Assembly: GCA_022448425.1 (NCBI GenBank)
Contig: JAKVCY010000187.1
Coordinates: 127-64,126, forward strand
DNA from: Thalassotalea sp.
Lineage (GTDB): Bacteria > Pseudomonadota > Gammaproteobacteria > Enterobacterales > Alteromonadaceae
Direction: 5' to 3'
Length of the DNA: 64,000 nt
Made by a program: the position numbers and the translations under genes. Of this stretch, positions 8,118 to 10,893 are shown one piece after another (the stretch's first letter is position 1; each line of letters starts with the position of its first letter). The notes beneath the pieces were generated by a model. The model searched no databases, was not told where the DNA came from, and saw only the letters and a list, made by a program, of their open reading frames with translations.

Positions 8118-10817
8118 ATGACACCAAAGCAAAACATTGCAGTTATCGAAAGCTGGAAAAAAGTACAGCCGATTGCATCTCAAGTCTCTCAGGTTTTTTA
8201 TGACGACCTTTGCGAAAAACATCCAAGTCTCAAGGCTTTTTTAGGCGAAGAGCTTTCGATCGCGAGAGACCAATTGGTGGCTAACCTAAATTCACTGGTT
8301 GAGACTTTAGTGGCAACTGATGAAGTTGTCATCGAAGACTTAGCAAAACATTTGCGTATTGGATTGGCTCCCGAGCAGTTTTCAGATGTAGGGCCTGCTT
8401 TATTAACATCTCTGGAAGTTGGACTTGAAAAAGACTTTACCGCGACAGTAAAGCGAGCATGGACAGCTCTGAATAAGTTAATTGTGGCAGCGATGGCACA
8501 ACAAGGCGCAAAGGGCACACCTTTAAATAAAGGAAACAAAGAGACTATGGGTACATCTGCCACTACTGATAACGAATTGGCCGTTAGGCTTCAAGGCGCA
8601 TTAGACCAATCTTCAACTGCATTCATGATGATCGATAGAGATTTTATCGTGACTTACGTGAACCAAGCGACGATGGATTTATTATCTGAGCATGAGGCGA
8701 CATTTCAAGTGAAGTGGCCAAACTTTGAAGCGGATAAAGATAAGGTTATCGGCTCATGTATCGACGTGTTTCATGAAAGGCCAGAGCATCAGAGAGAGTT
8801 GTTATCGGATGCGTCAAATTTGCCGTGGAAAACAGATATCCCAATTGAATATCTAACAATAGAAATTAACGTTACTGCGATTCATGACGGGGATGGCAAT
8901 CACATAGGCAACTCACTCGAGTGGCAAGATGTAACACAAGCCCGACACCAAGAAAACCAAGCTGTTCAGTTGCAAGGTGCCGTTGACCAATCAAATACGC
9001 CAAGCATGTTTATCGATCGTGATTTCAATATCACTTATGCGAATAAAGCTACATTGCAACTGTTGAAAAAGCATGAGGCAGTATTTGCTACAAAATGGCC
9101 AGGCTTTAGAGCAGATAAAGAACAGTTGATTGGTACTTGTATCGATGGATTTCATGTAAACCCTGACCATCAGCGTGCGTTGTTAGCTGATCCGAGTAAC
9201 CTTCCTTGGACTACCGATATTCATATTGAGCACCTTACTTTTGAACTCAACGTGACTGCGATAAACGATGCTCAGGGTAATTACATCGGCAATTCGCTGG
9301 AATGGCAGGATGTCACAGAAGTGCGCGATAAAGCGGTGCAAGTTGGACGCTTAATGTCAGCCGTTGAAGGTATGACGACCAATCTAATGATGGCCGATAC
9401 CAAAGGTAACATCGTTTATGCAAACCCTTCAGTATTAAACATGTTACGTCGACGAGAAGCTGAGTTAAAAGCGGTTTTACCTGCCTTTAACATTGATACG
9501 CTCTTGGGTACTAATTTTGATTCGTTCCATAAAAACCCAGCTCATCAACAAAATTTGTTAGGTAATCCTGATAATTTGCCTTATACCACAGAAATTTCTG
9601 TTGCAGGCTTGGCCTTCCAATTAATTGCGATACCACTAAGAGATGATAAGGGCGTGCACTTGGGTAGTGCAGTGCAATGGCTTGACTTGACAGAGCAAAA
9701 AGACACGCAAAATCAAGTTGAAGGCCTGATTAACGCGGCGATCTCTGGAGAGCTAACTCGTCGTATTGATACGTCAAATTACGAAGGGTTTATGAAAAAA
9801 CTTGGCGACAATATTAATAGTTTGATGGACGCTATTATCGAGCCGATAAATGATGCTATAAAGGTTGCTCAAGCGCTCGCTGATGGCGATCTTACGCAAG
9901 CGATGAATGGCGATTATGATGGCGAATTCTTAGCTCTTGCAGATGCCATGAATGATTCGATCGACAATTTGAGTAACATGGTTGACGAAATTCGCGATGC
10001 CTCGACCAATGTATTTGATTCGGCTAGAGAAATTGCCGAGGGCAACAACGAGCTTAGCCACCGCACAGAATCACAAGCCTCAAGCCTCGAAGAAACTGCG
10101 TCTGCAATGGAGCAATTAACCAGTACCGTACAGCAAAATGCGGAGAACGCGACGGAAGCAAGTAAGCTCTCTGCCAATGTTGTGACTAAAGCCGTAAATG
10201 GTGGCGATGTGGTTAAAAATGCTATTACCGCGATGAGTGATATCAATAAATCGAGTAAGAAGATTGCCGATATCATTAGCGTGATCGACGAAATAGCCTT
10301 CCAAACAAACCTACTTGCATTAAATGCTGCGGTTGAAGCCGCTAGAGCTGGCGAGCAAGGACGTGGTTTTGCCGTTGTTGCAGCCGAAGTACGTAACTTG
10401 GCACAACGCTCAGCAGGGGCTGCTAAAGAGATTAAGGGATTAATTAACGATAGTGTTGACGCTGTAAGTCAGGGTACGAAGCTCGTTGACGAAACAGGCC
10501 AAACATTTGAGCAACTTGTTAGTGCTATTGAAGAAGTAGGCAAGATGATAAACGATATCGATAGCGCAGGTAGAGAACAATCTGCTGGTATTGGAGAGGT
10601 TAGTGCGGCAGTTAGTCAAATGGATGAAATGACACAGCAAAATGCTTTACTAGTTGAAGAAGCTGCCGCGTCAAGTAAGTCAATGGAAGAACAAGCTCAA
10701 TTGCTACTGCAGCAAGTTGATTTCTTCAACAATGGCGAGGACGTCGAGGCGGATGCCAAACCAGTGAGGGCTGCTCCAACTAAGTCAACTCATTCCAACA
10801 AGGTATCAAAAACCTAA
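8118..10817 (+). CDS. Soluble Aer2-like chemoreceptor: globin + 3 PAS + HAMP + MCP signalling domain; C-terminal EWEEF tail out of frame (natural end probably 10885)
   Basis: No TM segment; globin helices with FY and LAKH; three PAS repeats with D.FH..P.HQ and [37 protein letters not shown] hairpin tip. Confidence 0.9.
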
Positions 10818-10893
10818 ACCGCCAACAAGAGAGCGCAAGCCGGTTCGACAAAACTGAGTCAGATGATGAATGGGAAGAGTTTTAGGCCAGTCA

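Follow-up and report, generated by a model that had tools for sequence, protein, structure and literature searches.

The Aer2-like soluble receptor, an oxygen-type chemotaxis receptor encoded on the forward strand at 8118-10817 of the window, the stretch of 64,000 nucleotides from a marine draft genome of Thalassotalea sp. analysed here, was truncated to 899 aa relative to the 922 aa of the intact form in its relatives. As encoded it had lost the C-terminal pentapeptide on which CheR and CheB dock, and the codons of this tag persisted out of frame just before cheR. Two small lesions separated the window allele from the intact genes, one of +1 nt beside a G>C and the other of -2 nt. Since all relatives and a second receptor of the same genome keep the tag, the evidence points to a defect of the strain or a fault in sequencing rather than to a new mechanism, and the defect is probably a real strain allele, biological rather than an error.

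The receptor frame ended at TAA 10815-10817 with the C-terminus ...SNKVSKT. Translation of frame 2 gave a TAA at 10781-10783 and then an open stretch from 10784 to 10885 closing with TAG 10883-10885, which left 8 nt before the cheR ATG at 10894. The orphaned tail KTESDDEWEEF with its TAG was located in this frame at 10850-10885 on the forward strand, the DEWEEF codons falling at 10865-10882, and its 11 residues were the same as the C-terminal end of P0002, an intact receptor of 922 aa that was 97% identical to the window receptor. An A5 run was present at 10808-10812. The ORF stop, the open -1 frame with its tagged end, the 8 nt to cheR and the A5 run, along with the absence of the CheR-docking pentapeptide from the encoded receptor, were described in the initial annotation and were recovered here without change. 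A random frame of 33 codons would be open with a chance of about 1/5 by our own arithmetic and the stretch from 10784 to about 10850 is not the ancestral reading frame, so its openness is probably fortuitous.

The alignment of orthologue tails that had been proposed as a check was carried out, and in all 10 orthologous receptor loci one uninterrupted frame ran to a (D/Q/E)EW(E/Q)EF terminus, from which the match of the out-of-frame tag is judged not to be due to chance. The C-terminal tether pattern x-[HFYW]-xx-[HFYW] was absent from the encoded window protein and present in these 10 orthologues, in P0002 and in P0004, a likewise intact 922-aa receptor from the sister species G003. Like the 10 orthologues, strains from three other studies carried the receptor in one frame at 922 aa with this kind of terminus. 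A DNA-level alignment, which took in seven of the 10 orthologous loci, placed the receptor stop 6-10 nt ahead of the ATG aligned with that of cheR in all seven.

Lesion 1, at 10808-10813 on the forward strand, read AAAAAC where same-species relatives had AAAAG, that is one extra base and an adjacent G>C (AAAA-G-CT to AAAA-AC-CT, +1 nt), and it placed TAA 10815-10817 in the receptor frame. Lesion 2, at 10850-10853 on the same strand, was an A4 run where related strains had A6 (-2 nt). The window allele therefore combined AAAAACCT with A4 and the intact allele AAAAGCT with A6, the two sites being about 40 nt apart and the net length differing from the intact relatives by -1 nt. With lesions of +1 nt and -2 nt, three frames are involved in the tail. 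The third, frame 1, held the orphaned middle piece of the linker (10816-10851, forward strand), as identified by three-frame translation, alignment and comparison with P0002 and P0004; the 12 ancestral linker residues were encoded there in frame 1 only and their counterpart in the intact relatives included KPPTRERRPTRQ.

The same two differences were recovered from independent material. Alignment with G003 gave +1 nt and -2 nt, G003 reading CGACAGAAAACT at lesion 2. The metagenome comparison consisted of the assembled contigs of four runs, X1, X2, X5 and X10. The X5 contig, which came from another study at a depth of 7.44 and spanned 10605-11300, had one letter fewer at 10808, C>G at 10813 and AA added behind 10849. 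Contigs from X10 carried the same intact form as X5 at lesion 1, a site on which X2, having no cover over 10708-10843, was uninformative, and contigs from both X2 and X10 had loose ends reading ...CGACAA before 10850, the intact form of lesion 2. Among the proteins, P0002 read ...KVSKAKPP at the site of lesion 1 and the intact tail of P0004 was ...KVSRAKPPTRERRPTRQKTESDDEWQEF. Against a biological allele, two lesions about 40 nt apart would be odd for slow neutral decay following a first hit, given that the orphaned tail has acquired no more than one or two substitutions.

The main competitor of a real strain allele is that the organism has a normal 922-aa gene and that both lesions arose as errors in a draft derived from metagenome data at low coverage, a reading we consider unlikely. 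The X1 contig, produced by an independent assembler (775 nt, depth 4.7), covered 10300-11041 and matched the window throughout these 742 nt, with neither a difference nor a gap and with both lesions included, so that an error would have to recur in two or more reads at both sites. This sole supporting contig falls under the depth of 5 below which contigs call for caution, and its reads may come from the same sample as the assembly of the window, in which case an assembler artefact is excluded and a read-level artefact is not. Both lesions touch A-runs. However, an insertion with an adjacent G>C and a 2-nt change are neither of them typical single-step homopolymer miscalls, and a miscall of homopolymer length would not give the base substitution beside the insertion of lesion 1. 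Frameshifts of 1 nt in gene interiors were also uncommon elsewhere in the source draft, at about two among 214 compared genes, which speaks against an error-prone homopolymer chemistry.

The draft itself (G000) comprised 216 contigs with 93% completeness and 4.6% contamination, and contained 7 single Ns scattered and one run of 100 Ns. Seven of 214 G003 ORFs were split over frames in G000 while the reverse control gave 1/211, and the frame-broken genes included internal deletions of 10 nt and 5 nt. This excess of frame-splits along with the single Ns indicates that the sequence quality of the draft is imperfect, and the intact gene in every other strain and species seen also favours an error. 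The truncated protein, P0001, was recorded from one contig only in an exact-sequence cluster look-up, and the contigs of the four runs, the exact-pattern scans and the protein search yielded no second sample with the truncated allele. Two exact-pattern scans of metagenome contigs, for either allele of lesion 1 and for the tag codons, returned 0 matches and are uninformative either way. When residues 760-899 were compared with shorter proteins, the best 120 of 2179 matches contained no evident C-terminal fragment from the same species, the top ones among those 120 showing 77% identity at 99% query coverage and 92% identity at 71% coverage.

Residue changes specific to the window exceeded those specific to the sister strain in the receptor (17 vs 5, a count reproduced with the junction residue outside the aligned columns) and in the neighbouring CheW (5 vs 0), CheR (7 vs 2), CheD (1 vs 0) and CheB (4 vs 2), which gave 17 vs 4 when the four were pooled. 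Relaxed selection specific to the receptor was not seen, the receptor resembling its pooled neighbours, which counts against a biological allele, and the window lineage is the longer branch.

The receptor gene lies within a chemosensory cluster that occupies 4194-16762, with all genes on the forward strand. The cluster opened with a small STAS-like protein (4194-4478), the first anti-sigma-factor antagonist, whose Pfam STAS match of 20.6 bits (E 3.9e-4) was below the cut-off of 22.6 and whose position fits the gene order given in PMC7184735. It was followed by cheY with a receiver domain (4503-4865; Response_reg, E 4.4e-27), cheA (4872-7076; Hpt, H-kinase_dim, HATPase_c and CheW) and two copies of cheW (7076-7600, E 7.3e-35; 7557-8090, E 6.5e-35). 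Downstream of the receptor were cheR (10894-11739; CheR_N and CheR), cheD (11769-12431; E 2.2e-27), cheB (12449-13531; Response_reg and CheB_methylest), an McpA-like receptor (13524-14717; MCPsignal), a STAS anti-sigma-factor antagonist (14733-15041; E 3.8e-12) and a protein combining a receiver, a SpoIIE-type serine phosphatase and a HATPase_c_2 domain (15044-16762; Pfam). The tail of the McpA-like receptor, ...DEGEVELF, ends in EVELF with a valine at the second position where tethers have an aromatic residue, and PMC7184735 likewise describes a conserved McpA C-terminus with Val in place of the aromatic residue. The order given there for the stage-1 F7 system is STAS, cheY, cheA, two cheW, aer2-like, cheR, cheD, cheB, mcpA-like, STAS and serine phosphatase. 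The ORFs and Pfam domains of the window followed it exactly, the first STAS being below the cut-off, and as gene order and domains match this definition the cluster is assigned, by sequence, to the stage-1 F7 (Aer2/McpB-type) chemosensory systems.

Pfam identified a globin, three PAS, a HAMP and an MCP signalling domain in the receptor. PDB matches were the Aer2 PAS-HAMP structures 3VOL (E 3.3e-46, over the third PAS and HAMP) and 4HI4 (E 1.6e-25), along with the Vibrio cholerae Aer2 PAS 6CEQ (E 4e-32), and the receptor PAS is therefore homologous by sequence to the heme-binding PAS of Aer2, heme binding itself being predicted. No transmembrane segment was found in the receptor by Pfam, which reported PAS, HAMP and MCPsignal domains, and the top 19-residue Kyte-Doolittle mean was 1.31, the usual threshold for a membrane helix being 1.6. 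For the 36H class question, judged by alignment alone, residues 572-886 aligned with Tsr 217-531 in spans of equal length.

The cheR gene encodes a protein of 281 aa from ATG 10894, and this exact protein was present in public collections. An alternative start at ATG 10870 was rejected, as it falls within the tag's EW codons and the corresponding protein was absent from public collections. Alignment with the structures 1AF7 and 1BC5 was gap-free across the beta-subdomain, with RYFMRGTGPHEGLVRVRQ aligned to RFFQQGTGNNRDKFKVVS. A long loop in this subdomain, found in the CheR of Salmonella and E. coli and in P. aeruginosa CheR2, marks the pentapeptide-dependent proteins (PMC5907407). The window CheR has the long loop, like that of Salmonella, and is predicted to bind the tag. 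By our own count on the alignment, the window CheR has a Lys rather than an Arg at the residue equivalent to Salmonella R197, the contact of the Trp of the tag. The equivalent residue was Lys in six CheR proteins of the same cluster and in G003, and Arg in G005; a Lys at this position therefore coexists with intact tags in the group, and the substitution is conservative.

The source genome encodes a further Aer2-like receptor outside the cluster. This orphan paralogue (G000:C94:45012-47585) retained an intact tail, QDEWQDF, and was 65% identical to the truncated receptor across the HAMP and signalling region, with gaps in the alignment of the two confined to the tail. Both paralogues were present in 6/7 other genomes of the genus, and the orphan was tagged in 6/6. 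According to Ortega et al. 2020 (PMC7184735), the x-[HFYW]-xx-[HFYW] tether is present in 96/130 Aer2-like receptors, and tetherless ones are only found in genomes with another tethered Aer2 homologue. By its sequence the source genome fits this rule, with an untagged cluster copy and a tagged orphan copy.

The ancestral receptor has 922 aa and a flexible linker of roughly 40 residues ending in (D)EWEEF, the predicted docking tag for the CheR of the cluster and, more weakly, for CheB. Lesion 1 alone ends the protein at TAA 10815 and leaves a receptor without its last 24 residues and tether. The consequences of tag loss for function, every one of which we infer, would be as follows. High-affinity docking of CheR on this receptor would be lost and methylation-based adaptation weakened, probably without being abolished, since the tagged orphan paralogue could share the array and recruit CheR in trans. 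The receptor stop would also have moved from 8 nt to 76 nt before the cheR ATG, and any translational coupling of cheR would be lost. The requirement of P. aeruginosa CheR2 for the McpB pentapeptide, invoked in the initial annotation, is in print, with Garcia-Fontana 2014 cited for both binding and methylation in PMC7698151 and PMC7390727, the former also describing weak binding of CheB2. The further claim that the lesion uncouples adaptation was too strong given the orphan. A broader reading is improbable, namely that the allele is a natural experiment in which the cluster-encoded receptor, its tether lost, relies on the tagged orphan for CheR and CheB in a mixed F7 array facing the cytoplasm, as a form of adaptational assistance, while -1 slips on A-AAA-A by a few ribosomes reach the authentic tail and supply sub-stoichiometric tethers.

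Slippage at a low level, suggested in the initial annotation as a source of tethered and untethered forms, would take the shape of a -1 shift of tRNA-Lys on A-AAA-A at 10808-10812, by which a minority of ribosomes would enter frame 2, and is very improbable. Frame 2 is open as described, and any slip upstream of 10815 would yield a protein of ancestral length with the tag at its end. The product would be 922 aa with a scrambled linker stretch and the authentic KTESDDEWEEF end, and tethered and untethered forms would coexist. The linker is a flexible tether in model systems according to PMC7698151, so that a scrambled stretch might be tolerated. However, A AAA ACC does not conform to the X XXY YYZ heptamer, the zero frame reading TCA AAA ACC TAA, and only a single-tRNA slip on A-AAA is possible. 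The 80 nt downstream (10813-10892) had a minimum free energy of -12.6 kcal/mol, whereas shuffled sequences averaged -14.9 (z = +0.83) and 152/200 of them folded as well or better. No recoding signal was conserved, the tail being in a single frame in 10/10 orthologues, P0002 and the sister strains, and no relative needs a frameshift. An A5 run is too short for appreciable transcriptional slippage. Programmed frameshifting was rejected for want of a heptamer, a downstream structure and conservation in relatives.

The loss of just one nucleotide at or close to the A5 run, shifting the whole tail to the -1 frame as first proposed, agrees with the net length and the open frame 2. It is rejected as next to impossible by P0002, P0004 and the alignments with G003 and the X5 contig, both of which place a gain of 1 nt at 10808-10813 and a loss of 2 nt at 10850-10853, and by the 12 conserved residues readable in frame 1 only. 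One added base would accordingly give an EWEEF end with a scrambled 12-residue linker stretch rather than restore a normal gene.

The closest known system is McpB/Aer2 (PA0176) of P. aeruginosa, which is likewise a soluble PAS-HAMP receptor encoded between cheW and cheR-cheD-cheB and which, in the Che2 (F7) pathway with CheR2 and CheB2, carries xWEEF on a linker, as did the ancestral form of the window receptor. The P. aeruginosa receptor has three HAMP, one PAS and two HAMP domains, whereas in the window receptor a globin at the N-terminus is combined with three PAS, and the window layout is the older stage-1 type with two cheW and flanking STAS genes. The tag is in frame in P. aeruginosa and out of frame in the window allele, and P. 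aeruginosa has one tagged receptor while the source genome has a second. V. cholerae Aer2 (VCA1092, F7 cluster III) is also a multi-PAS soluble Aer2-type receptor from a cluster with an McpA-like second receptor, although it has two PAS domains and no globin as described in PMC7184735.

In E. coli, Trg and Tap, receptors of what may be the same length class as that of the window, lack the pentapeptide and are methylated by CheR docked on the tagged Tar and Tsr (NWETF), which is known as adaptational assistance and is cited in PMC7698151 (ref 12). By analogy this is proposed as a model for the truncated receptor and the orphan. Trg and Tap are, however, membrane receptors of the flagellar pathway, and such assistance within an F7 array facing the cytoplasm would be a putative extension of it.

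Ortega et al. have described Aer2-like receptors that lack a tether and accompany tethered ones, and the untagged receptor beside a tagged homologue in the source genome resembles them. It differs in that the loss is visibly recent, the codons of the tag having persisted with the sequence found in the sister strain, and in that it hits the cluster-encoded copy that is tagged in all 10 relatives. If the allele is an artefact, its value would be as a caution on the G000 draft, in which genes are broken more often than in that of its sister. If it is real, the main receptor of an F7 pathway of ancestral type would recently have lost its docking tag for CheR and CheB in nature. The allele would offer a clean comparative case, since sister strains still show the tagged ancestor and the genome itself encodes a tagged paralogue, and would bear on trans assistance in F7 arrays and on the weight of the tether outside P. 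aeruginosa.

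The receptor gene at 8118-10817 lies in a chemotaxis cluster in which, by Pfam, a weak STAS-like ORF at 4194-4478 (20.6 bits against a cut-off of 22.6 bits) precedes cheY, cheA, a pair of cheW genes, the receptor, cheR, cheD and cheB and, after these, a 397-aa second receptor, a STAS gene and a receiver-SpoIIE phosphatase. This gene order is that of the stage-1 F7 system in the available text of Ortega et al. 2020 (PMC7184735). Pfam domains of the receptor were a globin, PAS repeats, HAMP and MCPsignal. Structure matches were computed with P0002, the intact sister-strain receptor that is 97% identical to the window's, and included the P. 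aeruginosa Aer2 PAS-HAMP structure 3VOL for residues 408-621 (E 3.3e-46), the V. cholerae Aer2 PAS structure 6CEQ for residues 415-525 (E 4e-32), E. coli Tsr for the signalling domain, with both spans equally long, and the single-domain bacterial globins 3S1I and 3UBC for the first 124 residues (E about 4e-10). The hydrophobicity of the window's receptor stayed below that of a membrane helix throughout (maximum 19-residue mean 1.31), and the predicted protein is Aer2-like, soluble and globin-capped. The N-terminal globin (window 8118-8500, receptor residues 1-130, Pfam Globin 23.2 bits) sits ahead of three PAS domains, and the receptor may hold two kinds of heme sensor, globin and PAS. The second receptor (13524-14717), whose start overlaps the cheB end by 8 nt, ends ...DEGEVELF. 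Valine at the aromatic position of the tether is described as McpA-like in the same available text (PMC7184735), and the EVELF end carries this signature.

The initial annotation had attributed an out-of-frame EWEEF pentapeptide to a 1-nt deletion or an assembly error, and its coordinates were all correct when compared with the sequence, the ORF listing and a translation of 10724-10885. The ORF encodes 899 aa and stops at TAA 10815-10817 (ORF listing and sequence of 10600-11000), with an A5 run at 10808-10812. Frame 2 has a TAA at 10781-10783 and is then open for 33 residues up to TAG 10883-10885, leaving a gap of 8 nt before the cheR ATG at 10894. The 281-aa protein from this ATG is the version on record in public collections, while the version from ATG 10870, which lies within the Glu-Trp codons of the tag, is not on record. 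In a three-frame translation of the tail, frame 0 ended ...SNKVSKT before its stop, frame 1 gave 15 residues of the tail and then a stop, and frame 2 carried KTESDDEWEEF. Since each frame reads one piece, the ancestral tail is distributed across three frames. The frame-2 stretch 10784-10849 noted as open was not ancestral coding sequence according to this translation and the alignment with G003, the sister species.

A single 1-nt deletion did not account for the tail. In the G003 alignment (82% identical over 501 nt) the window had one additional base at the A-run, site 1 (10808-10813), and lacked two bases at CGAC--AAAACT, site 2 (10850-10853). Contigs of public sequencing runs were mapped on 10300-11300 for a strain-level comparison. 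A 2171-nt contig from another study (X5, depth 7.44) spanned 10605-11300 with 25 substitutions relative to the window, and differed by one letter absent at 10808, C>G at 10813 and 'AA' inserted behind 10849, supporting both lesions. An RNA library of a third study (X10) agreed with X5 at site 1 and had a loose end '...CGACAA' before 10850, an end also found in a fourth study (X2) in which site 1 was uncovered. From these three runs the common form of the species is AAAA-G-CT at site 1 and A6 at site 2, where the window reads AAAA-AC-CT and A4, respectively. Each lesion by itself would cost the receptor its tag, and the first, at site 1, singly produces the observed stop.

A DNA search over 41 genomes (40 relatives and G000, the draft genome of the window) gave matches in 19, and the loci were translated. 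Translation of the orthologue tails, whose alignment the initial annotation had named as a check, placed the tag in frame at 10 of 10 orthologous receptor loci (G001, G002, G003, G005, G006, G007, G009, G015, G021 and G024), with ends of DDEWQEF, DDEWEEF, DQEWEEF or DEEWEEF. Locus L020 was left out of this count, since it encodes another receptor and no cheR follows it. One contig accounts for all records of the exact 899-aa protein (P0001). Clustering at 90% groups it with three others: P0002 from an independent assembly and P0004 from G003, both of 922 aa, and P0003, a 170-aa fragment from the N-terminus. P0002 ends in KTESDDEWEEF and P0004 in ...KVSRAKPPTRERRPTRQKTESDDEWQEF.

The lesions are probably a real strain allele. 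A 775-nt contig from a different assembler (X1, depth 4.7) covered 10300-11041 with 0 differences and 0 gaps, which favours this reading, as does the combination of an insertion and a neighbouring substitution at site 1. Only about two 1-nt gene-interior frameshifts were counted in 214 genes (267 kb) relative to G003, which speaks against a homopolymer-error chemistry behind the draft. A sequencing or assembly artefact was considered less likely, with several points on its side: the depth of X1 is low and X1 may itself be the source sample, and G000 is a draft of 216 contigs with 93% completeness, 4.6% contamination, seven isolated Ns and one run of 100 Ns. Five of the seven isolated Ns were within 25 nt on contig C140. 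There was also a clear surplus of broken genes in G000 (7/214 versus 1/211 in the reverse control). From 400 kb of G003, 256 ORFs of 200 aa or longer were taken, and for 214 of them an orthologue reached 70% identity or above; in G000 seven of these were split over frames, 205 gave one long match and two were partial. Of the seven splits, located on contigs C131, C166, C79, C195 and others, four or five at the least were well inside genes and included deletions of 10, 10, 10 and 5 nt. The single G000 ORF split in G003 was broken within its first 48 residues, and the 13 partial matches of the reverse control were all at the cut ends of 20-kb pieces. The indel surplus may stem from merging during assembly, from low coverage or from genuine pseudogenes. 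Whatever broke these genes, be it error or genuine decay, could have acted at the receptor tail too. Low-level slippage, floated earlier, is of low probability. Here tRNA-Lys would slip by -1 on A-AAA-A, translation would continue in frame 2, and the 922-aa product would keep the authentic end behind 12 scrambled residues of linker. The site bore no mark of programming, as the X XXY YYZ heptamer was absent from its sequence, the fold of the 80 nt downstream was poorer than the average of the shuffles (z = +0.83) and no relative, each with a one-frame tail, needs a shift.

Residue changes were polarised with G003 as the outgroup, using sister-strain genes that were all on one 17.8-kb contig. 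Window-only versus sister-only changes numbered 17 and 5 for the receptor, 5 and 0 for CheW, 7 and 2 for CheR, 1 and 0 for CheD and 4 and 2 for CheB. The window branch was longer in every gene compared across 4503-13531 (34 changes in total versus 9), and the window lineage either has a longer branch than the commonly sampled strain or its sequence has more errors. No sign of receptor-specific relaxation was found because the receptor (1.9% of residues changed) was no worse than its neighbours (1.6%), which is consistent with a recent lesion or an artefact. The observation in the initial annotation was confirmed and its interpretation partly borne out. The system is of a kind already known, and either it has lost a known motif through a double hit at strain level or the draft, of mediocre quality, is in error here.

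In the available portions of the P. aeruginosa studies (PMC7698151, PMC7390727), the GWEEF tag of McpB is bound by CheR2 with a KD of 0.52 uM and is indispensable both for the interaction with CheR2 and for methylation; the affinity of CheB2 for it is about 180-fold lower. The window CheR aligned without gaps to Salmonella CheR (1AF7, 1BC5) through the beta-subdomain loop, which sets tag-dependent CheR enzymes apart in the accessible text of PMC5907407. Lys replaces Salmonella R197, which contacts the Trp of the tag; close relatives still with tagged receptors also have Lys and G005 has Arg. The preceding residue (about 11440-11460, CheR loop GTGNNRDKFKVV) is Phe in the window; six sister-strain CheRs and that of G003 have Val there. 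This is one of seven window-specific CheR changes and could well be chance, and no conclusion was drawn from it. By analogy with the P. aeruginosa tag dependence, and given the CheR loop, the truncated receptor should dock CheR poorly. In seven of seven relatives' loci aligned at the DNA level the receptor stop was 6-10 nt ahead of the ATG aligning with that of cheR, a spacing that suggests termination-reinitiation coupling of the two genes. The distance in the window is 76 nt now versus 8 nt before, and any such coupling would be lost by this upstream shift of the stop.

Among all 18 signalling-domain matches in G000 there was one other tagged receptor, an orphan Aer2-like paralogue on contig C94 (45012-47585; 5013-7586 of locus L041) of 857 aa from its ATG and 871 codons from stop to stop. 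It has four PAS domains, HAMP, MCPsignal and an intact QDEWQDF end, is 97% identical to the G003 copy, and is present and tagged in six of the seven other genomes of the genus. A long basic linker was also seen, and the surrounding genes are metabolic, none of those nearby being a che gene. Over HAMP and the signalling domain the paralogue shares 65% identity with the cluster receptor, with gaps confined to the tail. According to the available text of PMC7184735, Aer2-like receptors that lack a tether are restricted to genomes encoding a further, tethered one, and G000 fits this rule with a truncated cluster receptor and a tagged orphan paralogue. This pairing suggests that the tagged orphan may help the truncated receptor in trans, as in E. 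coli.
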